A program made the position numbers and the translations under genes. From a virus (taxonomy: Duplodnaviria; Heunggongvirae; Uroviricota; Caudoviricetes), in IMG/VR virus record IMGVR_UViG_2609459861_000002, positions 1-16,313 of that record: 16,313 nucleotides of DNA; one strand, given 5' to 3'. Positions 1 to 16,313 of the stretch are shown in pieces (position 1 is the stretch's first letter; every line of letters begins with the position of its first letter). The notes beneath the pieces were generated by a model. That model did no database searches, was not told where the DNA came from, and worked only from the letters and a program-made list of their open reading frames with translations.

Positions 1-1254
1 ATGCTGGAACAAATGGGCATTGCCGCGAAGCAAGCCTCGTATAAATTAGCGCAACTCTCCAGCCGCGAAAAAAATCGCGTGCTGGAAAAAATCGCCGATG
101 AACTGGAAGCACAAAGCGAAATCATCCTCAACGCTAACGCCCAGGATGTTGCTGACGCGCGAGCCAATGGCCTTAGCGAAGCGATGCTTGACCGTCTGGC
201 ACTGACGCCCGCACGGCTGAAAGGCATTGCCGACGATGTACGTCAGGTGTGCAACCTCGCCGATCCGGTGGGGCAGGTAATCGATGGCGGCGTACTGGAC
301 AGCGGCCTGCGTCTTGAGCGTCGTCGCGTACCGCTGGGGGTTATTGGCGTGATTTATGAAGCGCGCCCGAACGTGACGGTTGATGTCGCTTCGCTGTGCC
401 TGAAAACCGGTAATGCGGTGATCCTGCGCGGTGGCAAAGAAACGTGTCGCACTAACGCTGCAACGGTGGCGGTGATTCAGGACGCCCTGAAATCCTGCGG
501 CTTACCGGCGGGTGCCGTGCAGGCGATTGATAATCCTGACCGTGCGCTGGTCAGTGAAATGCTGCGTATGGATAAATACATCGACATGCTGATCCCGCGT
601 GGTGGCGCTGGTTTGCATAAACTGTGCCGTGAACAGTCGACAATCCCGGTGATCACAGGTGGTATAGGCGTATGCCATATTTACGTTGATGAAAGTGTAG
701 AGATCGCTGAAGCATTAAAAGTGATCGTCAACGCGAAAACTCAGCGTCCGAGCACATGTAATACGGTTGAAACGTTGCTGGTGAATAAAAACATCGCCGA
801 TAGCTTCCTGCCCGCATTAAGCAAACAAATGGCGGAAAGCGGCGTGACATTACACGCAGATGCAGCTGCACTGGCGCAGTTGCAGGCAGGCCCTGCGAAG
901 GTGGTTGCTGTTAAAGCCGAAGAGTATGACGATGAGTTTCTGTCATTAGATTTGAACGTCAAAATCGTCAGCGATCTTGACGATGCCATCGCCCATATTC
1001 GTGAACACGGCACACAACACTCCGATGCGATCCTGACCCGCGATATGCGCAACGCCCAGCGTTTTGTTAACGAAGTGGATTCGTCCGCTGTTTACGTTAA
1101 CGCCTCTACGCGTTTTACCGACGGCGGCCAGTTTGGTCTGGGTGCGGAAGTGGCGGTAAGCACACAAAAACTCCACGCGCGTGGCCCAATGGGGCTGGAA
1201 GCACTGACCACTTACAAGTGGATCGGCATTGGTGATTACACCATTCGTGCGTAA
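1..1254 (+). CDS. proA: gamma-glutamyl phosphate reductase (glutamate-5-semialdehyde dehydrogenase)
   Basis: Full-length 417-aa ORF; I recognise the translation as enterobacterial ProA. Window begins at its start codon. Confidence 0.97.
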
Positions 1255-1368
1255 ATAAAACCGGGTGATGCAAAAGTAGCCATTTGATTCACAAGGCCAT
1301 TGACGCATCGCCCGGTTAGTTTTAACCTTGCCCACCGTGATTCACGTTCGTGAACATGTCCTTTCAGG

Positions 1369-1444
1369 GCCGATATAGCTCAGTTGGTAGAGCAGCGCAT
1401 TCGTAATGCGAAGGTCGGAGGTTCGACTCCTCTTATCGGCACCA
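1369..1444 (+). tRNA. thrW: tRNA-Thr, anticodon CGU
   Basis: Cloverleaf readable by eye: acceptor GCCGATA/TATCGGC, D-arm GCTC..GAGC, anticodon stem GCGCA/TGCGA with loop TTCGTAA (anticodon CGT), T-arm GGAGG-TTCGACT-CCTCT, 3' CCA encoded. Sits directly after proA as thrW does in E. coli. Confidence 0.93.
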
Positions 1445-1458
1445 TTTAAATCAATAAG

Positions 1459-2622
1459 TTACACATCATTAGTACCTTCCTTATTTTTTGACTGGGACAA
1501 ATTTGGGACCGATGGGTTCAGGATCGAGTCTATTTGCCGTGCGTGTTCGGTAAGGTGATTAGGTGCGAGGTGAGCATATCGACGAACCATTTCGATAGAC
1601 TCCCAGCCTCCCATTTCCTGTAACACTGACAACGGGACACCGGCTTGAACCAGCCAACTTGCCCAGGTGTGTCTCAAGTCATGAAATCTGAAATCATCAA
1701 TACCAGCTCGTCTCAGCGCCGCTTTCCAGGCTGTGTTTGCGTCATACCGCATCTTCCTGACTGTTGGCGCTTTCGTTCCGTCTGGTTTGGTACAGCTTTC
1801 CTTGTACACAAATACCCAACGGTGATGATTCCCGATTTGTTTTTTCAATACGCGACATGCAGTATCATTCAGCGCAACGCCAATTGCGCGGTTTGATTTA
1901 CTCTCTTCCGGGTTTATCCATGCCACCCGGCGCTGCATATCTATTTGTTGCCATTCAAGGTTGATGATGTTCGAGCGTCTTAAGCCTGTTGCCAGTGCAA
2001 ATTCAACAACAGACTTTAATGGCTCCGGACATTCATCAATCAGCCTTTGTGCTTCATGGGGCTCCAGCCAGCGGATCCGTTTATTCTTTGGTTGAGGCAC
2101 TTTAATAATTGGTGCCTTATCCAGCATTTTCCATTCACGCTCTGCGGCTCTTAGTAGGGCCTTTATAAATGAAAGATGCGTAGCCTTCGTTGCAACGGAC
2201 GCTGGTTTTGGCGTGTATTCTGGAACAGGTTTCCCTTTTTTTCTGCATGCTTCTGCCCTGAGTTTCCAGTTTTCCTCATGACGCCGGTTCGTCATTTTCT
2301 GCATTGCTGAATAAATTTTTGATTCAGTGATGTCTCTTAGTTGCATCCCTGCGAAATGTTGAAGCCAGAATCCGATCCGGCTTTTGTCATCGTCCAGTGA
2401 TTTCTTATGTGCTTTCTCTTCGAGCCACCTGACACACGCTTCCTCAAACGTCATATCAGGTATTTCACCAAGTTTGCTGACCCGCCATGCTTCAGCCTTT
2501 AGCTTGTCATGGAGCTCTGTCGCCTGCCTTTTGTCCTTTGTTCCAAGAGACTGTTTAAATCTTTTACCGTTCGGCAATGTGAAACTGGCGTACCATATTT
2601 CACTTCTGCGGAAGAGTGACAT
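1459..2622 (-). CDS. int: phage tyrosine integrase (lambdoid Int family)
   Basis: 387-aa ORF beginning [27 protein letters not shown], which I recognise as the IntD/IntF-type prophage integrase of E. coli; C-terminal HDLRHTWAS (HxxR) and RRYAHL (catalytic Tyr region). Stop codon lies 15 nt from the tRNA CCA end. Confidence 0.93.
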
Positions 2623-2849
2623 TTTCTTTCCTCTGTTATGCCATCACCCGCGCTCACCTTGATAGTATGCAGCGGAGACTGAAGCGCCGCAATGCAGGCT
2701 TGTCGCGTTGTGAGGTAAGGAGATTTTGGTTTAGTGGGGTCTTTGCGTGTTGCCTGTAGGCGGCCTGTTCGTATCCAGTTGGTGGCGGTTGGTCTGGATA
2801 TCTTAAGAAACTGACAGGCCTCATCGAGTGTGAGGCTGTATGATTCCAT
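2499..2849 (-). CDS. xis: excisionase / AlpA-type helix-turn-helix protein
   Basis: HTH-like segment [29 protein letters not shown] at 2849 is preceded by GAGG with 5-nt spacing; the longer track ORF starts at an upstream GTG. Lies immediately upstream of int, and its 3' end overlaps the int 5' end by about 120 nt, so one of the two ends is uncertain. Confidence 0.65.
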
Positions 2850-3099
2850 GGTTACCTCTGCTTTTTGAACGCATGTCACGTAACTTCTTAATGTGTTCTG
2901 CCGTTTCGATCTCTTCTGCTATCCGATCTGCATCAGCTTTATTCACAGGTTCAAAGTCATGATTAAAGCGGAACATGCTGGCGATACATGTTCTGCCTTT
3001 TCGGATGTAGTGAACTTTGTTGTGGGTAGAACGCAGGATTTTGCAGGGAGTGCCGTGGTGGTCGACGTACCAGGTGTTAGGAAAAATGATTCTGAACAT
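2821..3099 (-). CDS. hypothetical phage protein (92 aa)
   Basis: ORF with protein-like composition; ATG at 3099 preceded by GAGGT at 5-nt spacing; overlaps the xis start by 29 nt as in compact phage operons. Family not recognised. Confidence 0.5.
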   Translation of the reverse strand: MFRIIFPNTWYVDHHGTPCKILRSTHNKVHYIRKGRTCIASMFRFNHDFEPVNKADADRIAEEIETAEHIKKLRDMRSKSRGNHGIIQPHTR

Positions 3100-3146
3100 T
3101 TTTACACCTCAGTTGGACGATGTTGAAATTTGCTGCTTTGAGGCCA

Positions 3147-3365
3147 TCACAGTCCCCATTGTTTGTTCTTAAGTTCGATCTCCTCCTGGCAACTTGCACA
3201 AGTCCGACAACCCTGAACAGCCAGGCGTCTTCGCTCATCTATCGGATCGCCACACTCACAACAATGAGTTGCGGATACAGTCTGGTAGTTCAGACGACGC
3301 ATTTTTATTGCTGTATTGCGCTGTAATTCTTCGATTTCTGATGCTGAATCAATGATGTCTGCCAT
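3147..3365 (-). CDS. TraR/DksA-family C4 zinc-finger protein
   Basis: 72-aa ORF with CCECGDPIDERRRLAVQGCRTCASC, i.e. CxxC-(17)-CxxC, at the C-terminus; size and motif spacing match phage and plasmid TraR homologues. Confidence 0.8.
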   Translation of the reverse strand: MADIIDSASEIEELQRNTAIKMRRLNYQTVSATHCCECGDPIDERRRLAVQGCRTCASCQEEIELKNKQWGL

Positions 3366-3418
3366 CTTCCATTAATCCCTGAATTGTTGGTTAATACGCT
3401 TGAGGATGAATGCGAACA

Positions 3419-3443
3419 ATAAAAAAGGAGCCTGTAGCTCCCT
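3419..3443 (-). terminator. candidate intrinsic terminator downstream of the 3464-3679 ORF
   Basis: On the minus-strand RNA: stem GGAGC/GCUCC (extendable by a G-U and an A-U pair), loop UACAG, followed by UUUUUUAUUG. Confidence 0.4.
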
Positions 3444-3463
3444 GATGATTTTGCTTTTCATGT

Positions 3464-3679
3464 TCACCGTTCCTTAAAGACGCCGTTTAACATGCCGATC
3501 GCCAGGCTTAAATGAGTCGGTGTGAATCCCATCAGCGTTACCGTTTCGCGGTGCTTCTTTAGTACGCTACGGCAAATGTCATCGACGTTTTTATCCGGAA
3601 ACTGCTGTCTGGCTTTTTTGATTTCAGAATTAGCCTGACGGGCAATGCTGCGAAGGGCGTTTTCGTGCTGAGGTGTCAT
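3464..3679 (-). CDS. hypothetical phage protein (about 71 aa, start uncertain)
   Basis: C-terminal 71 residues from MTPQHENALRSIARQ are protein-like; the upstream in-frame extension to 3778 is Cys/His-rich and less convincing. No strong SD at any candidate start. Confidence 0.4.
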   Translation of the reverse strand: MTPQHENALRSIARQANSEIKKARQQFPDKNVDDICRSVLKKHRETVTLMGFTPTHLSLAIGMLNGVFKER

Positions 3680-3755
3680 TGAACAAGTCCCATGTCGGCA
3701 AGCATAAGCACACAGAATATGAAGCCCGCTGCCAGAAAAATGCATTCCGTGGTTG

Positions 3756-4133
3756 TCATGCAGCCTCCCGACGGGCAAGAATCCTTGAGCCGAACGCCAT
3801 CAACTCTCCACGATCAACGGTCGTAAAGTGGCAGTGTGTACGGGGGTATGGGTGCCAGATAATGAGCATCGAACCTTTATTATTTCCACTGACGGGTTTC
3901 TCAGTGAGTGGGTTAATAAATGCCAGTCGTCCTGCCGTGATGAATCTGACCTCACTGGCGGTTTGTATCGCTTCATGAAACCATCCGACAGATGTGTCAG
4001 CAGGCAATAACATTACACATCCCACACTACTGAATTTGTTTTCAGTGGCTGCCTTTTTCACAAAAGGGGAAATATTGCTGTATGGTGGATTCAACCAGAC
4101 ATAACCAGAGGCATATCTGGCTGAAAGAGGGGG
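3756..4133 (-). pseudogene. phage N6-adenine DNA methyltransferase (Dam family), 5'-truncated
   Basis: Translation contains the NPPY catalytic motif followed by MLLPADTSVGWFH..EVRFI.GRL.F.NP, as in phage Dam-type methyltransferases. Only 13 codons precede NPPY before an in-frame stop at 4134-4136, and there is no ATG; the track start is a TTG at the NPPY codon. The N-terminal part expected in this family is absent. Confidence 0.6.
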
Positions 4134-4143
4134 TTATTAAGGC

Positions 4144-4506
4144 GTGAATACCTACAGTATCACATTACCCTGGCCTCCGAGCAATAATCGCTATTACCGC
4201 CATAATCGCGGGCGCACGCACGTCAGTGCAGAGGGGCAGGCATACCGCGATAACGTCGCCCGAATCATTAAAAGCGCAATGCTGGATATCGGCCTGGCTA
4301 TGCCTGTGAAAATCCGCATTGAGTGCCACATGCCGGATCGCCGTCGCCGTGACCTGGATAATCTGCAAAAAGCCGCTTTTGACGCACTCACTAAAGCAGG
4401 TTTCTGGCTGGATGATGCTCAGGTCGTTGATTACCGCGTTGTGAAGATGCCTGTTACCAAAGGTGGGAGGCTGGAACTGACCATCACCGAAATTGGGAAT
4501 GAATGA
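4144..4506 (+). CDS. rusA: crossover junction endodeoxyribonuclease RusA (Holliday junction resolvase)
   Basis: 120-aa [27 protein letters not shown]...; I recognise it as nearly identical to E. coli prophage RusA. GTG start with GAGGGGG upstream. Confidence 0.93.
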
Positions 4507-4643
4507 TGTTTGAGTTTTATATGGCAGAACTTCTTCGCCACCGCTGGGGGCATCTGCGCTTATATCGTTTCCCCGGTTCTGTTTTGACCGATTACCGAAT
4601 ACTGAAGAATTACGCCAAAACCCTGACAGGAGCAGGAGTATGA
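4503..4643 (+). CDS. ylcG: YlcG-like small phage protein (46 aa)
   Basis: Hand translation from the ATG overlapping the rusA stop (ATGA) gives [46 protein letters not shown], matching the small gene that follows rusA in DLP12-type prophages. Below the ORF-track size cutoff. Confidence 0.65.
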
Positions 4644-4728
4644 AGTCAGAGATAACAATCAACTAATACTGTTTTGTTGATTTTTGCTTGTAATTGGCGT
4701 TCTGGTCTGATTTTTGTGGAGTAAGTTG

Positions 4729-5112
4729 ATGCGTGATATTCAGATGGTTCTTGAGCGTTGGGGAGCGTGGGCGGCTAATAATCATGAAGATGTGACCTGG
4801 TCGTCCATTGCCGCCGGTTTTAAGGGATTAATTACTTCAAAAGTAAAATCTCGCCCGCAATGTTGTGACGATGACGCGATGATTATTTGCGGGTGCATGG
4901 CCCGTCTGAAAAAGAACAACAGCGATTTGCACGATTTATTAGTAGATTATTATGTAGTCGGTATGACATTCATGTCACTGGCAGGTAAGCATTGCTGCTC
5001 TGATGGTTATATCGGGAAAAGGTTACAGAAGGCTGAGGGCATAATTGAAGGGATGTTAATGGCATTAGATATCCGGTTAGAGATGGATATCGTTGTTAAT
5101 AACTCTAATTAA
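4729..5112 (+). CDS. late-gene antiterminator Q (Q82/QuuD type)
   Basis: 127 aa from the ATG at 4729 ([22 protein letters not shown]...), with Cys clusters [12 protein letters not shown] and HCC typical of the Q zinc-binding fold; sits between the rusA/ylcG nin remnant and the lysis genes. Confidence 0.85.
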
Positions 5113-5145
5113 TATGCCAATTGTTTACTAAAAATTATTAAAAAT

Positions 5146-5163
5146 GGGGCGTTGAGACGCCCC
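5146..5163 (-). terminator. intrinsic terminator downstream of the porin gene
   Basis: Stem GGGGCG/CGCCCC with 6-nt loop; on the minus strand it is followed by AUUUUUAAUAAUUUUU. The plus-strand side is A-rich, so it is not a plus-strand terminator. Confidence 0.5.
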
Positions 5164-5301
5164 CAAAAATAAAGGGTAATATATAACAGAAGGTTTATAT
5201 AGTTAGAAGCAAGGTTGTGCTTCTAAAGGAAGGGGTTGGGGGGAGCCCTTTATATGGGGGGGAGGCACCGCCCCCCGCAACATATCTTTTTCGTAATCAG
5301 A

Positions 5302-6399
5302 TTAGAACTGGTAAACCAGACCTACAGCAACGATGTCATCAGTGCTTACACCGAGTGCTTTAGTGAAGTCATTTTTGTCAAGCAGGTTGATTTTGTAATC
5401 AACGAAAGTAGACATATTTTTGTTGAAGTAATAGGTTGCACCTACATCAACATATTTGACTAAGTCCTGATCGCCCCATACTCCAAGATCCTTACCTTTA
5501 GATTGCAGGTAAGCAACGGACGGACGCAGACCGAAATCGAACTGATATTGTGCAACAGCTTCGAAGTTTTGGGCTTTATTAGCAACGAAGTGATCAGCAA
5601 ATACAGTCATATTCTGGGTTTCAGAATAGGTAGTGGCCAGGTAAATGTTGTTAGCGTCATATTTCAGACCTGCGGCCCAAACTTCTGCATTTTTACCGGA
5701 AGCAAATACTTCAGGAAGAACTTTCCCTGCATTAACTTGAGTGTCGGTACGATCAGATTTCGCATAAGTTGCACCGATACCGAATCCTTCGTATTCATAG
5801 GTAGCAGAGAAACCGAAGCCATCACCGTTACCTTCAGTGTAGTTATCGAAATCGCTACGATCGTTTTTGCCTTGGTACTGAGCAGCAAAGTTCAGACCAT
5901 CAACCAGACCAAAGAAGTCGTTGTTACGATAGGTTGCAACACCAGTTGCACGTTGAGTCATGAACACGTCGGTTTGAGTCCAAGTGTCACCACCGAATTC
6001 TGGCAGGACGTCAGTCCACGCACCGATGTCGTATGCTACACCGTAGTTACGGCCGTAATCGATGGAGCCGTAGTCACCGAATTTCAGGCCAGCGAAGGCA
6101 AGACGGGTTTTATCTTTGGAGGAACCTTGAGATTCAGCGCGGTTGCCTTTGAATTCATATTCCCACTGACCGAAACCAGTCAGTTGATCGTTGATTTGGG
6201 TTTCACCTTTGAAGCCAAGACGGGCATAAGTAGTATCACCATCATCTGCATCATTAGAGGAGAAGTAGTGCTTAGCATTAACTTTCCCGTACAGATCCAG
6301 CTTGTTACTGTCTTTATTATAAATTTCAGCTGCCTGAGCAGACATCGCCATCAGTACTGATGCAGCTACAGCAGAAATTGCCACTGTTAATTTTTTCAT
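5302..6399 (-). CDS. nmpC: outer-membrane general porin, prophage-encoded (NmpC/Lc/OmpC family)
   Basis: 365-aa ORF with signal peptide [30 protein letters not shown], porin-like Gly/Tyr/Asp-rich beta-barrel composition and C-terminal YQF. I recognise the N-terminal mature sequence as the NmpC/Lc-type phage porin. Intact, with no IS disruption. Confidence 0.93.
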
Positions 6400-6940
6400 C
6401 GTGAGCCCTTTTTTTTGAACTATTATTAAAAAATGATGTCACTGCGCGATAAATATTCATCTAATCAATGTGATTATTTCAAGATGTAAGTTTTGGTTTC
6501 TCGTTTGATTTGTGAAGTAGATCTCTATTTTTATCTGAACTTTTTTCTATCGAATCCTATTCATAGCTCTTGGCTGAATAAAAATAAATCTATTAGCCAA
6601 TTTATATTAACGGCTGTTATTTATAAGTGCTCTATAATTTGAAGATTCAATTTAAATCGGCTAAAAATAACACTGGAAATTATTTGTTAGTTATTTGTTG
6701 AGGTTTTCTTATGTATTTGTGGTGGTGTTTTGAACACTCGGTAGCATTCTCATAAATATCATTCAGTGGTTTACGTACGTAAAAAATTGGTTATGCTGTT
6801 AAGAGTGGTTACTTCGTCACACAGCTTAAACCCGCCGTCGAGCTGGTTTTTCCATTTTTTGAGTCTCGATATTAGCTGATAACTCAATACCTGAGTTATT
6901 CACTGACTCCGAGTCTGTTACGTTTCTGCTTTTTTGCGAT
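6400..6940. promoter_or_regulatory. AT-rich upstream region of the porin gene; may also hold plus-strand late-operon signals
   Basis: About 540 bp of strongly AT-rich non-coding DNA with A/T tracts, of the kind found upstream of enterobacterial porin genes. No specific sites assigned. Confidence 0.3.
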
Positions 6941-6988
6941 ACGTTGTATTCCCTCAATTTACACCCGCTTTGTCTGCGAGGTGGGGTT

Positions 6989-7204
6989 ATGAAATCCATG
7001 GATAAGTTAACAACGGGTGTCGCCTATGGCACCTCAGCAGGTAGTGCCGGTTACTGGTTTTTACAGCTGCTCGATAAAGTCACGCCCTCACAGTGGGCGG
7101 CAATAGGTGTGCTGGGTAGTCTGGTATTTGGCTTGCTGACGTACCTGACAAACCTTTATTTCAAGATTAAAGAAGATAAGCGCAAGGCTGCGAGAGGTGA
7201 ATAA
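6989..7204 (+). CDS. class II holin (phage 21 S-type pinholin) with dual-start motif
   Basis: 71 aa, [26 protein letters not shown]...: two predicted TMDs, Met1-Lys2-Ser3-Met4 dual start, charged C-terminus; GAGGTGGGG SD 2-10 nt upstream. The longer track ORF starts at an upstream TTG. Confidence 0.9.
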
Positions 7205-7701
7205 TGCCTCCATCATTACGAAAAGCAGTTGCTGCTGCTATTGGTGGCGGAGCAATTGCTATAGCATCAGTGTTAATCACTGGCCCAAGTGGTAACGATG
7301 GTCTGGAAGGTGTCAGCTACATACCATACAAAGATATTGTTGGTGTATGGACCGTATGTCACGGGCATACAGGAAAAGACATCATGCTCGGTAAAACGTA
7401 TACCAAAGCAGAATGCAAAGCACTCTTGAATAAAGACCTTGCCACTGTCGCCAGACAAATTAACCCATACATCGAAGTCGATATACCGGAAACAACGCGC
7501 GGCGCTCTTTACTCATTCGTTTACAACGTGGGTGCTGGCAATTTCAGAACATCGACGCTTCTTCGCAAAATAAACCAGGGCGATATCAAAGGCGCATGTG
7601 ATCAGTTACGTCGCTGGACATATGCTGGCGGTAAGCAATGGAAAGGTCTCATGACTCGTCGTGAGATTGAGCGTGAAATCTGTTTGTGGGGTCAGCAATG
7701 A
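7204..7701 (+). CDS. SAR endolysin (T4-lysozyme-fold muramidase, phage 21 R-type)
   Basis: 165 aa; N-terminal Gly/Ala-rich weakly hydrophobic SAR segment [20 protein letters not shown] followed by the lysozyme motif GLEG..Y.D..G..T; start overlaps the holin stop (TAATG). Confidence 0.93.
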
Positions 7702-8159
7702 ACAGAGTAACCGCGATTATCTCCGCTCTGGTTATCTGCATCATCGTCGGCCTGTCATGGGCTGTTAATCATTACCGTGATAACGCCATTACCTACAAAG
7801 CCCAGCGCGACAAAAATGCCAGAGAACTGAAGCTGGCGAACGCGGCAATTACTGACATGCAGATGCGTCAGCGTGATGTTGCTGCGCTCGATGCAAAATA
7901 CACGAAGGAGTTAGCTGATGCGAAAGCTGAAAATGATGCTCTGCGTGATGATGTTGCCGCTGGTCGTCGTCGGTTGCACATCAAAGCAGTCTGTCAGTCA
8001 GTGCGTGAAGCCACCACCGCCTCCGGCGTGGATAATGCAGCCTCCCCCCGACTGGCAGACACCGCTGAACGGGATTATTTCACCCTCAGAGAGAGGCTGA
8101 TCACTATGCAAAAACAACTGGAAGGAACCCAGAAGTATATTAATGAGCAGTGCAGATAG
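7698..8159 (+). CDS. Rz i-spanin
   Basis: ATG at 7698 overlaps the endolysin stop (ATGA); N-terminal [21 protein letters not shown] then a charged coiled-coil-like periplasmic domain; closely resembles lambda Rz. Confidence 0.9.
7918..8100 (+). CDS. Rz1 o-spanin lipoprotein (embedded in Rz, +1 frame)
   Basis: 60-aa ORF wholly inside Rz; lipobox LVVVGC, proline-rich mature region [13 protein letters not shown]. Confidence 0.85.
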
Positions 8160-8190
8160 AGCTGCCCATATCGATGGGCAACTCATGCAA

Positions 8191-8484
8191 TTATTGTGAG
8201 CAATACACACGCGCTTCCAGCGGAGTATAAATGCCTAAAGTAATAAAACCGAGCAATCCATTTACGAATGTTTGCTGGGTTTCTGTTTTAACAACATTTT
8301 CTGCGCCGCCACAAATTTTGGCTGCATCAACAGTTTTCTCCTGTCCAATTCCCGAAACGAAGAAATGATGGGTGATGGTTTCCTTTGGTGTTACTGCTGT
8401 CGGTTTGTTTCCAACAGTAAACGTCTGTTGAGCACATCCTGTAATAAGCATTGCCAGAGCGGCAGAAAACAACATTTTTTTCAT
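8191..8484 (-). CDS. bor: Bor lipoprotein (serum-resistance-associated moron)
   Basis: 97 aa from MKKMLFSAALAMLITGC (lipobox ITGC); I recognise it as lambda Bor-like. Opposite orientation to the lysis genes, as in lambda. Confidence 0.9.
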   Translation of the reverse strand: MKKMLFSAALAMLITGCAQQTFTVGNKPTAVTPKETITHHFFVSGIGQEKTVDAAKICGGAENVVKTETQQTFVNGLLGFITLGIYTPLEARVYCSQ

Positions 8485-9341
8485 CTTATTATCCTGTATT
8501 GTTAAAAACAGCAGAATCCTATGTGACAACAATTAAACGATAGTTAAATGGATTGATGAAAATTAAAACTATATAGGTGTACGGTCAGACTATTGGAGGT
8601 AGTCTGGATTTGAATGTCAGTGTGTTGTCGGCATTATGGCAATGCAATTTGGATAAAGCGGGGATTAAAAAGATAGAGGCGAGCCGGTCAGGTAGAAATG
8701 AATCAGGCTCAAAGTGAAGCGGAAAAGGTCTTTGGCACAAACTGATGCTGCCATAATTACAGCCTGATGACTTGTGGAATGAAACATGTTGAACCTCCTT
8801 AATTGATGTTATTCGAGTGAGGAAGGCATTCTGTCCTCCTATACTGTCCAGTAAATCAAACAGGAAGCTTGTCTCACGTGTGAGACAAGCCTCTCCATTA
8901 GCGAGTTGTATTGATCACAACTCTTCAAAGAATTCATTACTGGGTAGATGAAAATAGTTTCACGATGAATGGAGGAGGCTATGTTGGTGGCTTCTTCATT
9001 GGAGTACATATGCCCCCACGAACCCCAAAAACCTGCCGTGTTCGCGGCTACCGCAATACCACCACAGATCCGTCAGGCTATTGCAAAAGCCACAAAAGCG
9101 AAGGCTGGAAGCAATACAAGCCGGGCCAGTCCTGTCATCAGCGCGGTTATGGTTCGCGGGGTTGTCCCTCATGCTCGCCAGTCCTGTGCGGGGGGGGGAA
9201 GAAACAGGACACTCACACAGATTTTTGTGGGTCGATGCTATTCCTTTCTGGATTATCCCGATGCCATTCATGCAAGGGCTGTATCAGACGTTCGTCATGG
9301 CTGTCAGGCTGACGGGTCCTCCCGGTGGGGGGGCCTGCCAC

Positions 9342-9528
9342 GGGGCGGGAGCGTCGCGGAAAAAGGCTAGTTTTTGCATTTTTATCGGCCACCATCATCT
9401 TTACATCTTATTGATTATTAATGATTATTTGTTTTTTGTATGTCGAATTGCGTGTTTTTTGTTCGACATCGAACGCGTTTTCTTAAAGTTGTTCGCACGA
9501 TGCATGTTTAAAGCTCTCCGGAGGAAAT
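9342..9528. other. candidate cos region (cosN-like core followed by A/T-rich cosB-like segment)
   Basis: CGGGGCGGGAGCGTCGCGG at 9341-9359 matches the lambda cosN core as I remember it (CGGGGCGGCGACCTCGCGG) in both flanks, differing in the central 5 nt; followed by an A/T-rich stretch with repeated TTCGA/TCGAA motifs, directly upstream of the small terminase gene. Confidence 0.4.
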
Positions 9529-10020
9529 ATGGATCATGAGTTGAAAAACCTGGTGCTGAATATTAATCAACTGGCGGCTTTATCTGGTCTGCACCGCCAG
9601 ACTGTCGTGGCAAGACTGAAAAACATTCGTCCCGCTGGTGGACATGACAAACTCAAGCTATACCGGTTGACCGATATTCTGACTGAATTTATGGGGTTAC
9701 CACCGCCGGTTGCTGAGGGCGAAATGGATCCACATGAACGCAAAGCCTGGTATCAGTCTGAACGTGAGCGTCTTAAGTTCGAACAGGAAACGGCACAACT
9801 CATTCCGGCCAGTGATGTCAGACGGGAGTTTGCCATCTGGGCAAAAGCGGTCGTGCAGGTGCTGGAGACATTACCGGATATTCTGGAACGTGACTGCGGC
9901 CTGCAGCCTGCTGCTGTGAGCCGTGTTCAGTCCATTATTGATGATCTGCGCGATCAGATAGCCCTGCGGGTGACCGAAGCAGGTGCGGATGATGAGGAGG
10001 AATTACAGCAGGAGGAGTAA
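9529..10020 (+). CDS. terminase small subunit (Nu1 family)
   Basis: 163-aa ORF with N-terminal HTH-like segment LNINQLAALSGLHRQTVVARLKNI and acidic C-terminus; stop overlaps the start of the large-terminase ORF (TAATG), the standard Nu1-A arrangement. Confidence 0.8.
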   Translation: MDHELKNLVLNINQLAALSGLHRQTVVARLKNIRPAGGHDKLKLYRLTDILTEFMGLPPPVAEGEMDPHERKAWYQSERERLKFEQETAQLIPASDVRREFAIWAKAVVQVLETLPDILERDCGLQPAAVSRVQSIIDDLRDQIALRVTEAGADDEEELQQEE

Positions 10021-11312
10021 TGCTGAATCAGGAAACCGCAAAGGCAGCACGAACCGATTCAGGTTATATCCTTCGCGCACCGAGACGAATGCGGGTTGCT
10101 GATGCCGTTGCTCAGTATATGCGAGTGCCCATGGGGGCCGGGAACTCAGTCCCGTGGGATCCGCTGGTGGCACCGTATGTTCTTGAGCCGATGAACTGCC
10201 TGGCCTCGCGTGAATACGACGCAGTGATATTTGTTGGTCCGGCACGAACCGGCAAGACTATCGGCCTGATTGACGGCTGGGTGATTTACAACGTGATTTG
10301 CGATCCTGCGGATATGCTGATCATTCAGATGACGGAGGAAAAAGCCCGCGAACACTCCAAAAAACGACTTGCCAGAACGTTTCGCGTCAGCCCGGAAGTG
10401 GTCAGTCGCCTGAGTCCGAACAAAAATGACAACAACGTTTATGACAGAACATTCCTTGCTGGCAACTACCTGAAAATCGGCTGGCCGTCAGTCAATATCA
10501 TGTCCTCATCAGATTATAAATGCGTGGCGCTGACGGATTATGACCGTTTTCCGGAAGATATTGATGGCGAGGGGGATGCCTTCTCTCTTGCCTCAAAACG
10601 TACCACCACATTTATGTCCAGTGGTATGACGCTGGTGGAGAGTTCCCCCGGCAGGGATGTGAAGGATGTGAAATGGCGACGGACTTCACCGCATGAGGCT
10701 CCACCAACCACGGGGATACTGTCGCTCTATAACCGTGGCGATCGCCGTCGCTGGTACTGGCCCTGTCCACACTGTGGTGAGTATTTTCAGCCCTGCGGCG
10801 ATGTGGTTGCTGGTTTCCGTGATATTGCCGATCCCGTGCTGGCAAGTGAGGCGGCTTATATTCAGTGTCCTTCCTGTTCAGGACGGATTATGCCTGAACA
10901 AAAACGTGAGCTGAACGGACGTGGGGTCTGGTTGCGGGATGGTGAATCCATCAATGCGGATGGCAGTCGTTATGGTGATCCCCGACGCTCACGTATTGCG
11001 TCATTCTGGATTCCACCCATTATCTTTAACGGAATAGCGTATAGCGATCCGGGAAGTGGTAATAACCCGGGAGGTACAAGATACACGGGTTATGGTTTTG
11101 AAGTTCGCAAAAACGGTGTATTAATCGCATCCAGAGAAACTAAAGGGGCCATTCCCGGTAGCTACAGTGCGGTTATTGATATGCCGAGTGGCAGGGGAAG
11201 CGTCACTCTGGAGTTTAAGGTTTTCCATAAAGGCAATCAGTGGGCAGGTAATATCACCGACTGTACGGTGATTGTGACCAAAAAAGCTGCTTCCGGCATC
11301 AGTATTCGTTGA
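10020..11312 (+). pseudogene. terminase large subunit (gpA family), N-terminal ATPase region only, fused in frame to about 100 unrelated codons
   Basis: Residues 1 to about 330 carry gpA-like landmarks (P-loop VGPARTGKT, CPHCGEYFQ zinc motif, GVWLRDG). Lambda gpA is about 640 aa; here the ORF ends at 430 aa and its last 100 residues do not resemble terminase. A hairpin-plus-T6 terminator and lom follow, which is the position of the J 3' end in lambda. Confidence 0.7.
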
Positions 11313-11333
11313 AGTTGTTATAACCCATATAAG

Positions 11334-11357
11334 GGCACCAGAAATGGTGCCTTTTTT
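11334..11357 (+). terminator. intrinsic terminator
   Basis: GGCACCA-GAAA-TGGTGCC stem-loop followed by TTTTTT. Confidence 0.7.
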
Positions 11358-11381
11358 ATTGCAGAAAAGCGAGAGGTAATT

Positions 11382-11981
11382 ATGCGTAAACTTTATGCCG
11401 CCATTTTGTCCGCAGCCATTTGTCTGGCCGTATCCGGTGCGCCTGCATGGGCATCTGAACATCAGTCCACGCTGAGCGCGGGGTATCTTCATGCCCGGAC
11501 CAACGTTCCCGGCAGCGATGATCTGAACGGGATTAACGTGAAATACCGTTATGAGTTTACGGACACACTGGGGCTGGTGACGTCATTCAGCTATGCAGGA
11601 GACAAGAATCGCCAGCTGACCCATTACAGCGATACCCGCTGGCATGAAGATTCCGTTCGTAACCGCTGGTTCAGCGTAATGGCGGGGCCGTCTGTGCGCG
11701 TGAATGAATGGTTCAGCGCGTATGCGATGGCGGGTATGGCTTACAGCCGTGTTTCGACTTTTTCCGGGGATTATCTCCGCGTAACTGACAACAAGGGGAA
11801 AACGCATGATGTGCTGACCGGAAGTGATGACGGTCGCCACAGCAACACGTCTCTGGCGTGGGGGGCTGGCGTGCAGTTTAACCCGACCGAATCCGTGGCC
11901 ATTGATATTGCTTATGAAGGCTCCGGCAGTGGCGACTGGCGCACTGACGGTTTCATCGTGGGGGTCGGTTATAAATTCTGA
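11382..11981 (+). CDS. lom: Lom outer-membrane protein (Ail/Lom/PagC family)
   Basis: 199 aa with signal peptide ending AWA/SEH and C-terminal IDIAYEGSGSGDWRTDGFIVGVGYKF, which I recall as identical to the lambda Lom C-terminus. Confidence 0.92.
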   Translation: MRKLYAAILSAAICLAVSGAPAWASEHQSTLSAGYLHARTNVPGSDDLNGINVKYRYEFTDTLGLVTSFSYAGDKNRQLTHYSDTRWHEDSVRNRWFSVMAGPSVRVNEWFSAYAMAGMAYSRVSTFSGDYLRVTDNKGKTHDVLTGSDDGRHSNTSLAWGAGVQFNPTESVAIDIAYEGSGSGDWRTDGFIVGVGYKF

Positions 11982-12008
11982 TTAGCCAGGTAACACAGTG
12001 TTATGACA

Positions 12009-12034
12009 GCCCGCCGGTTCAGGCGGGCTTTTTT
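12009..12034 (+). terminator. intrinsic terminator downstream of lom
   Basis: GCCCGCC-GGTTCA-GGCGGGC stem-loop followed by TTTTTT. Confidence 0.75.
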
Positions 12035-12045
12035 GTGGGGGGAAT

Positions 12046-15000
12046 ATGGCAGTAAAGATTTCAGGTGTACTGAAAGACGGCGCAGGTAAACCGGTACAGA
12101 ACTGCACAATCCAGCTGAAAGCAAAACGTAACAGCACCACGGTGGTGGCGAACACGGTGGCCTCAGAAAATCCGGATGAAGCCGGGCGTTACAGCATGGA
12201 CGTTGAGTACGGTCAGTACAGCGTTATTCTGTTGGTGGAAGGCTTCCCGCCATCGCATGCCGGGACCATCACCGTGTATGAAGACTCACAACCGGGTACG
12301 CTGAATGATTTTCTCGGTGCCATGACGGAGGATGATGTCCATCCGGAGGCACTGCGCCGCTTTGAACTGATGGTGGAAGAGGTGGCGCGTAACGCGTCCG
12401 CAGTGGCGCAGAACACAGCAGCCGCGAAGAAGTCAGCCAGCGATGCCGGCACATCAGCCCGTGAGGCGGCAACCCGTGCAACTGATGCTGCAGGCTCAGC
12501 ACGTGCAGCCAGCACGTCAGCCGGACAGGCCGCTTCGTCGGCTCAGTCAGCGTCTTCCAGCGCAGGAACGGCATCAACAAAGGCCACTGAAGCATCAAAA
12601 AGTGCTGCCGCTGCAGAGTCTTCAAAAAGCGCGGCAGCCACCAGTGCCGGTGCAGCGAAAACGTCAGAAACGAATGCCGCAGCATCACAAAAATCTGCGG
12701 CCACTTCTGCATCCACCGCGACCACGAAAGCGTCAGAAGCTGCCACCTCAGCCCGGGATGCGTCGGCTTCAAAAGTGGCGGCAAAATCATCAGAAACGAG
12801 CGCAGCCTCGAGCGCCGGCAGTGCAGCTTCCTCGGCAACGGCGGCAGGAAATTCCGCGAAGGCCGCAAAAACGTCTGAGATGAATGCGGATAACAGCGCA
12901 CAGGCGGCAGCAGACTCACAAACTGCATCGGCAAATTCCGCGACAGCAGCCAAAAAATCAGAAACCAACGCGAAAAATAGTGAGTCAGCAGCAAAGGTCA
13001 GCGAAACCAACGCTAAAGCGTCAGAGAACAAGGCGAAAGAATATCTCGACAAGGTCGGGGGACTCGTCAGCCCGATGACGCAATACGATTGGCCCGTTGT
13101 TACTGGTAATGAGTCTTTTTACATAAAGATCGCGAAACTTTCCGATCCCGGAAGCAACAATTGCCATGTAACGCTAATGGTTACTAACGGCGGTGACTAC
13201 AGCTCCCCTTACGGAAACATTGACTTTATCGAGATCTCGGCGCGCGGTCTGCCTTCTTCGCTTACTGCTGATAATGTATCTCGTTACCTGAGTATACGCC
13301 GTTTAGGGCCAACCGGGCTAATCAATAGCATGCAAATGCGTTACGGCCTGGTTAAAGATGATGGCTTTATTGAGGTTTGGGCCTTCCAGCGTGCATTTAT
13401 CAACGGCGCAAAGGTTGCGGTACTGGCGCAGACGGCACGCACGGAATTATACATTCCAGACGGATTTGTTAAGCAAACCGCCGCGCCTTCTGGATATGTT
13501 GAAAGCCCCGTTGTAAGGATTTACGACCAGTTAAACAAGCCGACTAAAGCAGATTTGGGCCTTTCTAATGCTATGCTTACAGGCGCTTTTGGTCTTGGCG
13601 GTAGCGGTCTTGTTTTGGATGGTAAAATGACCGATAAGGAACTACTACAAGAGCTAAGGGCGAAAGGTGGGTGTTTCTGGAGGTCAGGAAAACCAACAGG
13701 TAGCGAATCAACAATTTTCAGCCACGGTTCTGGTATATTCTCGCGGTGCGGCGATACGTGGTCAGCTATTAATATCGATTACGAAAGCGGTAGAGTAAAG
13801 ATTTACTCTAGTAACGATAATAGACTCAACAATGGTACTTTTAACATAAATGAGCTATACGGAACCAAATACAAGCCGTCGAAATCGGATGTTGGACTTG
13901 GTAACGTAACTAACGATGCGCAGGTGAAAAAATCCGGCGACATTATGTCAGGTGATCTGTCGATCACTAAAGCAACACCTTCACTATACCTGCGTTCAAA
14001 AAGTGGAACCGCCCATGTATGGTTCCAAAATGAGGATCAGTCGGAACGCGGCGTTATTTTTGCGCCTACAAATACTGATACGCTTGGCGAAGTTCACATC
14101 AGGGCTAAAAACGCAAAAGGTCAATCAAGTGGTGATTTTATTGTTCGTCACGACGGGATGGTTGAAGCCCGTGATCTCACATTAGCGGGTAAAACTAAAG
14201 GCGCAAAAGCAGAATTTGCAAACACAAGCACTAGCTCCGATGATACTACGGTAAGCATAAAAGGATCTCAGCATACTCCTCTGGTTTTAACGCGCAACAA
14301 CACAATTAAAAATTTATCCATTGGGTTTAAGGTTGATGACGTTGACCAAAAATATCTCGGCATATACGGTGACGGTGATTTGTATTTTGGTGGTTATTCT
14401 GACCACACAAAAAACAGCAAAGTAATTACACAAGCAATACTCGATAGCGGGGTAACGGTAGGCGGCAAAACAACATTTTCTGACCTTGCCACATTTAACG
14501 CAGGTATGTCTGGGCCTATCGAGCCGGAAGCCATTGAAGGCATGACTATCGATCTTAATGACCTTATCATTAAGTTCACGGATAAAGGTTCAGTTAAATA
14601 CTATCACTGCAAAACTGCCGGAGGCGGTTCGAATATTACCAATAAGCCTGACGGCGTAGGCGGCAACTTTTTGCTTCGTGTAGAGTCAATTCGTAAGGTT
14701 AGTGATTCAGATTATATAAACATGCAAACGCTGATTAGCGGCGACAAAGGACGCGTGCATGTTCGTTTTGTTACTAATGGTAATTGGACAGCATGGAGCG
14801 AGCATGTTGTTTCAGGATGGAATCAGGATGTGACCGTCAGGTCGTTAACCTCGACGACTCCATCAAAATTAGGCGGCGGGCGTGTTGATGTGCTGGGGAG
14901 TACGTCAGATTACAGTAGTATGAATTGTGCTGTGCGCGGTGTTGATAGCACTGGAACCAATTCGGCGTGGTCAGTAGGTACATCGAAAAACACGGGAAAA

Positions 15001-15804
15001 ATGTTGTGCCTTAAAAACCACAGAAGCAGCGCTCAAGTGCTGTTAAATGGCGATGATGGCGCGGTGCAACTACTAAGCGGTACTGTCAACGGTGCTACAG
15101 CACAGGCGCTAACCATCAACAAAGATGAGGTTAACTCAACTGCTGATTTAGTAATTAGAAAACAGTCAGGGACTGGCAATCGTTTTGTTTTAAAGAACGC
15201 AGGTAATGCAGAACTACCGTTTAACATCAGTGTATGGGGTTCAAGTGATCGACAAAACGTTTTTGAGGTTGGAACGTCTGCTGCGTATCTGTTTTATGCG
15301 CAAAGAACGCCAGCAGGCCAGTTGTTTGATGTAAATGGCGCTATTAATTGCACAACGCTGAATCAGTCATCAGACCGCGACCTTAAAGACGATATTCTCG
15401 TTATCAGCGACGCGACGAAAGCAATCCGCAAAATGAACGGGTACACCTACACGCTCAAGGAAAACGGCCTTCCTTATGCTGGCGTTATTGCACAGGAAGT
15501 AATGGAGGCGCTACCGGAAGCCGTAGGATCGTTTACTCGTTACGGTGAAGAATTGCAGGGTCCGACCATTGATGGCAACGAGCTACGCGAAGAAACGCGT
15601 TACCTCAATGTTGATTATGCGGCGGTGACTGGTTTACTTGTCCAGGTCGCCCGTGAAACAGATGATCGCGTTACCGCGCTGGAAGAGGAAAACACAACGC
15701 TACGTCAAAATCTGGCAACAGCAGACACCCGGATCAGCACTCTGGAAAATCAGGTAAGCGAACTGGTTGCACTTGTCCGGCAGTTAACAGGAAGCGAACA
15801 TTGA
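12046..15804 (+). CDS. stf: mosaic side tail fibre: lambda Stf-like N-terminus, divergent central domain, C-terminal intramolecular chaperone (peptidase S74-like) domain
   Basis: 1252-aa ORF. N-terminus MAVKISGVLKDGAGKPVQNCTIQLKA... is near-identical to lambda Stf as I recall it, followed by an Ala/Ser/Thr/Lys-rich repetitive shaft. Central region, from about residue 337, is unrelated. C-terminal 143 aa begin SS/DRDLK (Ser and Lys at i+5) and end in a heptad-like coiled coil, as in self-cleaving chaperone domains of endosialidase and T5 pb1-type fibres. Confidence 0.9.
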   Translation: MAVKISGVLKDGAGKPVQNCTIQLKAKRNSTTVVANTVASENPDEAGRYSMDVEYGQYSVILLVEGFPPSHAGTITVYEDSQPGTLNDFLGAMTEDDVHPEALRRFELMVEEVARNASAVAQNTAAAKKSASDAGTSAREAATRATDAAGSARAASTSAGQAASSAQSASSSAGTASTKATEASKSAAAAESSKSAAATSAGAAKTSETNAAASQKSAATSASTATTKASEAATSARDASASKVAAKSSETSAASSAGSAASSATAAGNSAKAAKTSEMNADNSAQAAADSQTASANSATAAKKSETNAKNSESAAKVSETNAKASENKAKEYLDKVGGLVSPMTQYDWPVVTGNESFYIKIAKLSDPGSNNCHVTLMVTNGGDYSSPYGNIDFIEISARGLPSSLTADNVSRYLSIRRLGPTGLINSMQMRYGLVKDDGFIEVWAFQRAFINGAKVAVLAQTARTELYIPDGFVKQTAAPSGYVESPVVRIYDQLNKPTKADLGLSNAMLTGAFGLGGSGLVLDGKMTDKELLQELRAKGGCFWRSGKPTGSESTIFSHGSGIFSRCGDTWSAINIDYESGRVKIYSSNDNRLNNGTFNINELYGTKYKPSKSDVGLGNVTNDAQVKKSGDIMSGDLSITKATPSLYLRSKSGTAHVWFQNEDQSERGVIFAPTNTDTLGEVHIRAKNAKGQSSGDFIVRHDGMVEARDLTLAGKTKGAKAEFANTSTSSDDTTVSIKGSQHTPLVLTRNNTIKNLSIGFKVDDVDQKYLGIYGDGDLYFGGYSDHTKNSKVITQAILDSGVTVGGKTTFSDLATFNAGMSGPIEPEAIEGMTIDLNDLIIKFTDKGSVKYYHCKTAGGGSNITNKPDGVGGNFLLRVESIRKVSDSDYINMQTLISGDKGRVHVRFVTNGNWTAWSEHVVSGWNQDVTVRSLTSTTPSKLGGGRVDVLGSTSDYSSMNCAVRGVDSTGTNSAWSVGTSKNTGKMLCLKNHRSSAQVLLNGDDGAVQLLSGTVNGATAQALTINKDEVNSTADLVIRKQSGTGNRFVLKNAGNAELPFNISVWGSSDRQNVFEVGTSAAYLFYAQRTPAGQLFDVNGAINCTTLNQSSDRDLKDDILVISDATKAIRKMNGYTYTLKENGLPYAGVIAQEVMEALPEAVGSFTRYGEELQGPTIDGNELREETRYLNVDYAAVTGLLVQVARETDDRVTALEEENTTLRQNLATADTRISTLENQVSELVALVRQLTGSEH
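12400..13050 (+). repeat. degenerate tandem coding repeats (Ala/Ser/Thr/Lys-rich shaft of the tail fibre)
   Basis: Recurring motifs KTSETNA, KSSETSA, KTSEMNA, KKSETNA, KVSETNA in the translation; GC-rich, and it generates long spurious ORFs in other frames and on the opposite strand. Confidence 0.6.
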
Positions 15805-15984
15805 TATCCTTCAAGCTCTGAAGGAGGCTGTTCCCGGTACGTTCAGACTGTTGTTGAGCTGGAGATCGCAACGGAGGAAGAAACCTCATTGCTGGAAGCC
15901 TGGAAAAAATATCGGGTGTTGCTGAACCGTGTTAATACAACAACTGCACCGGATATTGAGTGGCCAGAAGAACCTATAGGGTAA
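15805..15984 (+). pseudogene. tail fibre assembly protein (Tfa), 3' remnant without start codon
   Basis: The 60 codons immediately after the fibre TGA, in the same frame, end ...[36 protein letters not shown], which reads as a Tfa C-terminus; there is no ATG/GTG with an SD in this frame. Confidence 0.5.
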
Positions 15985-16054
15985 ATTCGTAATGATTACC
16001 TAAATACGTTATTCTTTTGTTCAAAAAGTGATTTTGCTATAGGTAGGGAGTATG

Positions 16055-16313
16055 GGTGATGCTGCCAACTTACTGATTTAGTGTATGATGGTGTTTTTGA
16101 GGTGCTCCAGTGGCTTCTGTTTCTATCAGCTGTCCCTCCTGTTCAGCTACTGACGGGGTGGTGCGTAACGGCAAAAGCACCGCCGGACATCAGCGCTATC
16201 TCTGCTCTCACTGCCGTAAAACATGGCAACTGCAGTTCACTTACACCGCTTCTCAACCCGGTACGCACCAGAAAATCATTGATATGGCCATGAATGGCGT
16301 TGGATGCCGGGCA
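16055..16313 (+). mobile_element. IS1 insertion sequence, left end (partial, runs off the window)
   Basis: From GGTGATGCTGCCAACTTACTGAT (the IS1 terminal inverted repeat) onward the sequence matches IS1 as I remember it, through the insA 5' region. Confidence 0.92.
16110..16313 (+). CDS. insA: IS1 InsA (partial, 5' portion)
   Basis: GTG start at 16110; hand translation gives [68 protein letters not shown], the InsA N-terminus. Missed by the ORF track because it has no stop inside the window. Confidence 0.88.

Follow-up and report, generated by a model that had tools for sequence, protein, structure and literature searches.

Predicted SP6-group transcription signals ahead of a conserved 40-codon reading frame in a DLP12-like prophage

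Among described systems in which a resident element meets a second virus, the hok/sok type I toxin system excludes T4, and the Rex proteins, which are made constitutively, sense a protein-DNA complex. The late promoters of satellite P4 are activated by P2 Ogr, and the mavirus provirophage is activated by the giant virus CroV. Here we describe a small module in a 16,313-nucleotide stretch of DNA (the window; positions 1 to 16,313 of IMG/VR record IMGVR_UViG_2609459861_000002), in which a palindrome, a predicted SP6-like promoter, and a leader precede a 40-codon open reading frame (ORF) on the minus strand. On balance, and with modest confidence, we read window positions 8893 to 8665 (minus) as what would be one compact transcription unit made of SP6-group (Autographiviridae, Molineuxvirinae) signals, probably fired by an invading phage and possibly defensive.

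The closest counterparts of these signals are the promoters and palindromes of the SP6-group phages K1-5, K1E, SP6, and Kp7. The module resembles them in its 22-bp promoter (exact in most relatives and matched at 20 of 22 positions in the window), in its palindrome motif, in the distance of the palindrome upstream of the promoter, and in the layout of promoter, 5' hairpin, and strong Shine-Dalgarno (SD) sequence. Unlike theirs, the window site is single, is antisense, and lies in a temperate lambdoid prophage with no single-subunit RNA polymerase gene in the 16-kb window, and its promoter faces an ORF that has no homologue in those phages. When window positions 6900 to 9100 were compared with K1-5, SP6, and Kp7, no similarity other than the palindrome and promoter was detected, and no coding sequence was shared.

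The likeness to hok/sok-type exclusion consists of a hydrophobic helical peptide of about 40 residues or fewer, its proposed release only after infection, and a gene that overlaps a convergent transcript. However, no antisense small RNA antitoxin was found (no Rfam match and no promoter-like site on either strand), and the sole candidate antisense to the small ORF is the prophage late mRNA. In addition, the module would be triggered when the invader's polymerase transcribes it rather than when an antitoxin decays, and the window peptide, whose toxicity is putative, has no similarity to known toxin families. Like lambda RexAB and other prophage abortive-infection systems, the module is encoded by a lambdoid element and is proposed to act at the membrane after superinfection, to the benefit of the lysogen population. 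Unlike RexAB, with which it shares no homology, its proposed sensor is a promoter sequence and its effector is one small peptide; no PADLOC model matches. The module would also resemble P4 and mavirus in being an integrated element with no expression before another virus brings the transcription machinery that recognizes its promoters. Those elements are parasites that use a helper to reproduce, whereas the module is one tiny gene in an unrelated temperate phage and would target a single-subunit RNA polymerase, not a transcription factor. The lambda bor/iss moron is adjacent, shares the strand of the module, and, as morons usually are, is opposed to the late operon; yet bor has its own lambda-like upstream region to about 8599, is absent from many module-bearing phages, and is present in lambda, which lacks the module. 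As far as these comparisons go, the module has the defining features of none of the type I toxins, RexAB-type abortive-infection systems, or P4/mavirus-type elements. Literature searches, whose coverage was incomplete, turned up no account of prophages that carry promoters for virulent-phage RNA polymerases; SP6 and K1-5 genome reports outside that coverage may mention matches.

Promoter, palindrome, and small ORF

Read along the minus strand, the elements follow each other in the order ...GGAGAG GCTTGTCTCACACGTGAGACAAGC TTCCTGTTTG ATTTACTGGACAGTATAGGAGG ACAGAATGCCTTCCTCACTCGAATAACATCAATT AAGGAGG TTCAAC ATG.... The original prediction, made from the letters of the window, had pointed out the palindrome, the SD sequence, and the ORF, all of which we found as described; the virulent-phage-type promoter that follows the palindrome was absent from it. 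This predicted promoter, ATTTACTGGACAGTATAGGAGG, is of the K1-5/K1E (Vectrevirus) type and occupies 8835 to 8856 (minus; -17 to +5), with the predicted +1 at the G at 8839. A position weight matrix (PWM) was built from 13 K1-5 promoters, and 100 shuffles served as the control. The window promoter scored 31.2 bits, within the range of K1-5's own promoters (27.8 to 38.4); the next best site in the window scored 9.3, and the shuffle maximum was 16.0, so this is a single site in the window. A promoter scan of 8300 to 9300 found no sigma-70-like promoter on either strand.

When the region was searched with blastn against 50,697 phage records, Vectrevirus genomes were found, each with 6 to 8 matching places. 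Among the relatives, the majority 22-mer is ATTTACTGGACACTATAGAAGG, carried by 60 of the 92 loci compared from IMG/VR. It occurs unchanged in K1-5 at 12580 and 22852, the latter copy preceding gene 31 (the SP6 counterpart of which is annotated as the major capsid protein), and an annotated K1E promoter differs from it at +5 only. Every occurrence of the exact majority 22-mer in IMG/VR falls either in a Vectrevirus genome or fragment or in this prophage module. The window copy departs from it at two positions, -5 (C>G) and +2 (A>G); the K1-5 promoter at 6204 likewise has G at -5. The conserved core GACACTATAG, with G at +1, therefore reads GACAGTATAG in the window (G at -5) and is exact in 60 of the 92 loci. 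An SP6-like polymerase is reported to accept promoters of this group and to tolerate the +2 A>G change (PMC13029058). At the level of sequence, the promoter and palindrome are copies of K1-5, K1E, and SP6 elements.

The 24-bp palindrome, GCTTGTCTCACACGTGAGACAAGC, lies at 8867 to 8890 (minus), with a stem that can be extended to 8893 to 8864. It was expected about 80 nt upstream of the ORF and proved to end 79 nt before the ATG; it reads GCTTGTCTCAC-AC-GTGAGACAAGC from 8890 to 8867, with perfect 11-bp arms around a 2-nt center. By a rough estimate, an inverted repeat with 11-bp arms and a short spacer would arise by chance about 0.04 times in 16.3 kb. K1-5 carries GTCTCACATGTGAGAC or GTCTCACGTGTGAGACAA at 6002, 6183, 8392, 14559, and 31014 and TGTCCAACGTGTTGGACA at 9569, and three of the K1-5 palindromes lie 2 to 13 nt upstream of a promoter. 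The gap between palindrome and promoter is 13 nt in K1-5 (14559 to 14590) and 10 to 14 nt in the window, depending on where the palindrome is taken to end. In SP6, palindromes of the GTCCAAC..GTTGGAC class lie upstream of the promoters at 6118, 6287, and 14286, and in Kp7 TTGTCTAACACGTTGGACAA, of the same class, lies directly upstream of the promoter at 5890. The prophage palindromes have either TTGTCTCAC..GTGAGACAA or TTGTCCAAC..GTTGGACAA. On this comparison, the SP6-group virulent phages have this same palindrome motif between their genes.

The suggestion that the palindrome could form a hairpin is borne out to the extent that it is conserved and able to form a 13-pair stem. In a scan for terminator-like sites, the minus-strand stem had 13 pairs, 6 of them G-C, followed by the tail CTGTTTGATT, in which the U tract is interrupted. 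Across 10 distinct variants, pairing is preserved in 93.8% of pair cells, compared with 32 to 49% when partners are slid; three pairs change on both sides, and the outer pairs include G.U pairs in the minus sense only. We considered the paired TC>CA and GA>TG changes as RNA covariation and rejected this interpretation, as they amount to a switch between two palindrome classes that are both present in virulent phages. The paired changes alone are thus no proof of an RNA structure. A site of the P2 Ogr/delta type (TGT-N12-ACA, at about -55) was also rejected. The pattern fits by construction, yet any -10-like element lies about 38 to 47 nt away, the spacing differs between Escherichia coli and Klebsiella, and identity to the SP6-group palindromes already accounts for the motif. 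In function, the palindrome could be a terminator, a hairpin in the RNA, or a site for protein binding.

The predicted transcript begins with a 52-nt leader (8788 to 8839, minus), in which GGAGG (8839 to 8835) can pair with CCTTCC (8826 to 8821) as a 5' stem-loop. The near-consensus SD sequence AAGGAGG occupies 8794 to 8800 (minus) and is separated by a 6-nt spacer, TTCAAC, from the ATG at 8787 to 8785. Mean pairwise difference reaches its minimum for the region, 0.013, across the SD-ATG stretch; the leader from 8834 to 8801 (34 nt) follows at 0.039 as the most conserved noncoding part, compared with 0.10 to 0.17 in the flanks. Only 1 of 24 variants comprising SD and ORF has a changed SD sequence, and Klebsiella versions have AAGGAG(G) 5 to 7 nt before the ATG. 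The succession of promoter, 5' hairpin, and strong SD resembles the late leaders of K1-5. The module leader has modest similarity to the K1-5 leader at 6204 (z = 4.2 against shuffles); derivation from the Vectrevirus capsid-gene leader was considered and rejected, the similarity being not significant (z = 1.2). As a side observation, CCTTCC is able to pair either with the 5' GGAGG or with the SD sequence, which the minimum-free-energy fold partly sequesters; this alternative pairing could constitute a translational switch.

The 40-codon ORF, MFHSTSHQAVIMAASVCAKDLFRFTLSLIHFYLTGSPLSF, lies at 8665 to 8787 (minus), was found both in the minus-strand reading and in the ORF list, and would encode a small hydrophobic peptide with a predicted single helix. 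Conservation in related prophages had been named as the check on both ORF and palindrome. The ATG, 40 codons, and stop are intact in 110 of 110 E. coli-type loci (23 of 23 distinct ORF sequences), and in all 21 Klebsiella-type loci, whose retrieval did not depend on the ORF, a strong SD precedes an ATG that opens 37 to 38 codons with the same TAA end. The distinct substitutions in codons 22 to 40 comprise 6 synonymous and 2 nonsynonymous changes plus a stop-to-stop change. The random expectation is 26% synonymous, and a binomial estimate puts the excess at about 0.005. Read in the overlapping lysC frame, seven of these eight changes alter the encoded residue; thus, the constrained frame is the small ORF and not lysC. 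Codons 2 to 21 have 3 synonymous and 26 nonsynonymous changes, a pattern that indicates no purifying selection in the N-terminal half and possibly diversifying selection. At least five ORF sequence types exist (E. coli, Kp1/2, Kp3, Kp4, and Kp5), whose first 72 nt are 46 to 58% identical, no closer than random sequences; a random 37-codon frame of this composition would be open with a chance of 0.186 per type. Judged by its conservation, the small ORF behaves like a real gene, and its C-terminal half is under purifying selection. The original description of the ORF as unannotated held for the Prokaryotic Genome Annotation Pipeline (PGAP), which makes no call here. It did not hold throughout, as ON470612.1 carries the hypothetical protein URC10065.1 and a few database entries list an uncharacterized protein.

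All versions of the peptide (37 to 40 residues) are hydrophobic, with a grand average of hydropathy (GRAVY) of 0.65 to 1.64. For the window peptide, the GRAVY is 0.72 and the best 17-residue stretch scores 1.32, compared with 1.4 to 2.45 for Klebsiella versions. AlphaFold2 predicts that the window-type family forms a single helix over residues 2 to 34, with a mean predicted local distance difference test score of 82. The peptide families have no match in Pfam, PHROGs, PADLOC, or NCBIfam, and a search of 5.8 billion proteins returned 18 close relatives only, unnamed or labeled "hypothetical."

Promoter types in related prophages

The segment is present in 633 of 5,426 complete E. coli genomes; pattern scans of species-representative genomes gave no match. 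Across 92 loci of the E. coli/Shigella type, the promoter is of the K1-5/K1E type in 60, of the window type in 9, ATTTAGGTGACACTTTAGAAGG in 8 (the SfIV group), ATTTAATGGACACTATAGAGGG in 7, a -2 variant in 6, and AATTAATGG... in a further 2. The SfIV-type variant (ATTTAGGTGACACT..) has the SP6 specificity region and matches Salmonella SP6-like phages at 96.9% identity over 32 nt, in 3 to 4 places per genome. In L006-type E. coli phages, the palindrome and promoter are tandemly duplicated. The duplicated unit (L006:1204-1727, from E. coli isolate 624, and L113 to L126) consists of the 5' end of the HNH gene, the palindrome, the promoter, and the leader; the upstream copy keeps the window-type promoter GGACAGTATAGGGGG and has lost the SD and ATG.

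The Klebsiella loci were first reached through a 38-residue ORF with a shared C terminus and then, independently, through a DNA pattern. Their modules occupy the same lysis/packaging junction in the same antisense orientation. They carry the palindrome TTGTCTC(T/C)TATAAGAGACAA and a T7-group promoter whose specificity region varies by locus. By the established consensus sequences, the forms are T7-like GCGACTCACTATAG, T3-like CAACTCACTAAAG, and K11-like AATTAGGGCCCACTATAG. The T7-group promoter matches annotated promoters of BA14 and Kvp1. A second palindrome follows and then AATAGTGGCGAGTATAGA, which is the promoter of the Klebsiella Molineuxvirinae phage Kp7; the Kp7 genome contains 12 copies of TAATAGTGGCGAGTATAGAAGA or close variants. 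Among the Klebsiella-type temperate phage contigs (L109 to L111 and L220 to L237), the second palindrome is degraded in some loci, and the small ORF exists in at least four unrelated versions. Taken together, the predicted promoter variants track virulent phage groups, and the Klebsiella variants match virulent phages of the same host genus.

Downstream cargo is limited to bor in E. coli and to a 125-residue protein in some Klebsiella loci, and no known defense gene was found there. The latter gene (L100 and L102, 3010 to 3387, plus strand) follows the small ORF in the same orientation and encodes an acidic, Cys-rich protein with a weak match to phrog_12178. It is possible that this protein is cargo of the same transcript.

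Proposed activation by an invading phage and its alternatives

We propose that the unit is silent in the lysogen because no host-type promoter is detectable. On infection by a K1-5- or SP6-like phage, the RNA polymerase that the invader makes would transcribe from the +1 at 8839. This transcription would persist after host transcription shut-off, which is a general property of T7-group infections. The leader, with its 5' hairpin and near-consensus SD, would then direct strong synthesis of the small hydrophobic helical peptide, and transcripts might also read through into bor. The peptide would most likely damage the membrane, trigger premature lysis, or otherwise hinder the invader, an abortive infection that would protect the lysogen population and the prophage. 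We put forward this abortive-infection role as a conjecture because the peptide is small, hydrophobic, and rapidly diversifying, because the promoter specificities are multiple and diversified, and because the transcript offers the prophage no other benefit, with only bor and antisense to its own lysis genes downstream. With less confidence, and short of an even chance, we suggest that such promoter traps are widespread in the temperate phages of Enterobacteriaceae. In these, T7/SP6-type promoters, sometimes of two specificities in tandem, would drive a fast-evolving membrane peptide of 37 to 40 residues, so that the invader's polymerase would itself set off an abortive-infection or interference response.

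Several points weigh against this proposal. We infer invader-driven transcription, toxicity, and protection alike from sequence, and the proposal gives no account of the role of the palindrome. The window promoter is a predicted one that departs twice from the consensus (-5 G and +2 G), and promoter diversity among the relatives, 0.076, is not clearly below that of the flanks. The window peptide is moderately hydrophobic, with K, D, and R in midhelix, and is a weaker candidate for a membrane toxin than the Klebsiella versions. The unselected N-terminal half could reflect relaxed constraint rather than an arms race. Finally, the Klebsiella palindrome between the T7-type promoter and the ORF would block that promoter if it were a terminator.

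An unlikely alternative is that the palindrome and promoter are a cis site through which the invader replicates, transcribes, or mobilizes prophage DNA, with the ORF being secondary. The closest K1-5 counterparts (6002 to 6225, comprising two palindrome-promoter units, one of them with the -5 G) immediately follow the RNA polymerase gene. The promoter-dependent primary origin of T7 sits just downstream of its RNA polymerase gene, and the position of the K1-5 counterparts equals that of the T7 origin. The two tandem palindrome-promoter units in L006-type prophages and Klebsiella modules, and the leader similarity to K1-5 6204 given above, point the same way. This alternative, however, leaves unexplained the near-invariant SD and ATG, the open frame in five unrelated types, and the synonymous change at the C terminus, and chromosomal prophage DNA would profit little from local priming.

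We consider it similarly improbable that the module is a neutral relic, an SP6-like regulatory fragment gained by recombination in a coinfected cell and carried along with the lysC end, with the ORF as a chance frame. Lambdoid phages are mosaics, the module always accompanies a particular lysC 3' end at a recombination-prone module boundary, and the N-terminal half of the ORF evolves as though unconstrained. A relic does not readily explain why different prophage lineages carry different promoter specificities, each fitting a real group of virulent phages. By a rough estimate, the SP6 triplet at -12 to -10 would arise through three random substitutions with a probability of about 2e-5. Moreover, the regulatory signals alone are shared with virulent phages, the SD and ATG are the most conserved positions, five unrelated ORF sequences are open, and the module has been kept in a heavily deleted prophage.

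The model of the original prediction, a small gene regulated by host or prophage in which the palindrome is the operator of a dimeric regulator and the ORF is cotranscribed with bor in the lysogen, is very improbable. The exact repeated palindromes of virulent phages are compatible with protein binding, and the link to bor had some basis: the two genes share a strand, most E. coli loci have bor downstream of the module, and the interval from the ORF stop to the bor start contains no terminator-like site, so that read-through is possible. However, an operator would be expected near a host-type promoter, and the scan described above found none; no regulator gene is adjacent, and the palindrome and following sequence copy virulent-phage signals. 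Cotranscription with bor is not the organizing principle of the module, as each occurs alone: SfIV, L006 to L008, and the Klebsiella loci have the module without bor, and lambda has bor without the module. There is equally little likelihood that the plus-sense hairpin is a processing, stability, or termination signal of the late operon, with the ORF and promoter match incidental; although the 290-nt spacer that separates lysC from the HNH/terminase genes contains the palindrome, whose plus-sense fold in the window reaches -17.7 kcal/mol, G.U pairs that exist in the minus sense only are needed for the stem extension and in several variants, plus-sense folds are weaker in most variants, no T run follows the hairpin on the plus strand, and the 31-bit promoter match and the conservation of the ORF would go unexplained.

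If activation by the invader's polymerase is borne out, about one in nine complete E. coli genomes and many Klebsiella prophages would hold a hidden gene that only certain virulent phages switch on. K1-5, K1E, SP6-like, K11/KP32-like, and Kp7-like phages are understood to be favored for therapy against K1 E. coli and Klebsiella, and the module could help to account for strain-specific plating failures of those phages. It would also represent a new sensing principle in phage-phage conflict, in which the invader is recognized by its promoter specificity and the response is immune to host transcription shut-off. The loci would further supply naturally occurring, matched variants of promoters read by single-subunit RNA polymerases. 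More generally, a 40-codon ORF below annotation cutoffs can be a conserved gene.

Prophage setting and neighboring genes

The module resides in a dormant, heavily deleted, DLP12-like lambdoid prophage of E. coli adjoining a tRNA. The tRNA, at 1369 to 1441, was found by an Rfam search of the whole window at gathering thresholds; that search and one of 8400 to 9200 at E<=10 returned only this tRNA and chance-level matches. The prophage genes include an integrase (1459 to 2622, minus), RusA (4144 to 4506), the Q antiterminator (4714 to 5112), an nmpC-like porin (5302 to 6399, minus, on the strand shared by bor and the small ORF), a holin starting at 6944, an endolysin starting at 7204, and Rz/Rz1 (7686 to 8159). 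The bor/iss lipoprotein gene (8191 to 8484, minus), annotated as iss, is the 3' neighbor of the small ORF. On the packaging side, the module is bounded by a truncated HNH endonuclease gene (9010 to 9159, plus), which is annotated as a pseudogene and is full-length in relatives; a gene for a DUF1441 protein lies beyond this remnant. Window positions 1 to 6400 also hold an aldehyde-dehydrogenase-family gene beside the DLP12-like set.

In the 430-residue ORF at 10020 to 11312 (plus), residues 41 to 304 form the ATPase domain of the terminase large subunit GpA, and residues 350 to 429 correspond to the end of tail tip protein J, its C-terminal domain for receptor binding. This fusion indicates that the whole block of head and tail genes has been deleted and that the prophage is defective. 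The stretch from 8540 to 9020 is 100% identical to E. coli MS 85-1, and the wider alignment of 7698 to 11011 with NZ_CP146650.1 (MS 85-1), which stops at 11011, has 96.3% identity. The lower wider identity means that the window derives from a different, mosaic relative. Lambda-like homology around bor stops at about 8599, and the stretch beyond it, up to 9010, has its homologues in SfIV/P27-type phages (84 to 97% identity).

In SfIV/P27-type phages, the order of the late operon is holin, endolysin, DUF2570 spanin, lysC, the 290-nt spacer, HNH, and terminase. On the basis of this homology, window positions 8589 to 8717 (plus) are the 3' remnant of lysC, which encodes an Rz1-like o-spanin; PGAP annotates it as an "Rz1 lytic protein" pseudogene in the identical MS 85-1 sequence. 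In L006 to L008 and SfIV, lysC is intact. The module is antisense to this resident late operon: the small ORF begins in the spacer between lysC and HNH and runs on the opposite strand into the last 17 lysC codons, so that its 3' end overlaps the final 53 nt of the remnant (8665 to 8717; 17 codons and the stop). The module was found only with lysC alleles ending in ...KIEASRSGR(N/S)ES(G/D)SK, whereas lysC alleles without the module end in very different C-terminal tails and lack both the promoter and the antisense ORF. The LysC tail that follows ...GIR(K/S)(I/V)E (loci L113 to L192; window positions 8665 to 8717) lies opposite the small ORF and is wholly different with and without the module. 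This tail looks like a passenger of whatever lies downstream, and the variable C-terminal tail of the o-spanin is partly dictated by a gene on the opposite strand.

Two further observations concern the HNH side of the module. A 56-codon ORF, MYSNEEATNIASS..., at 8839 to 9009 (minus) begins directly beside the HNH start codon, running the opposite way, and crosses the palindrome, and its DNA is conserved among relatives. Just beyond the HNH remnant, a run of nine Cs (minus, 9198 to 9190) lies within a 7-bp inverted repeat, GTCCTGT...ACAGGAC, at 9181 to 9210; it may mark a recombination joint or be a tract prone to slippage.

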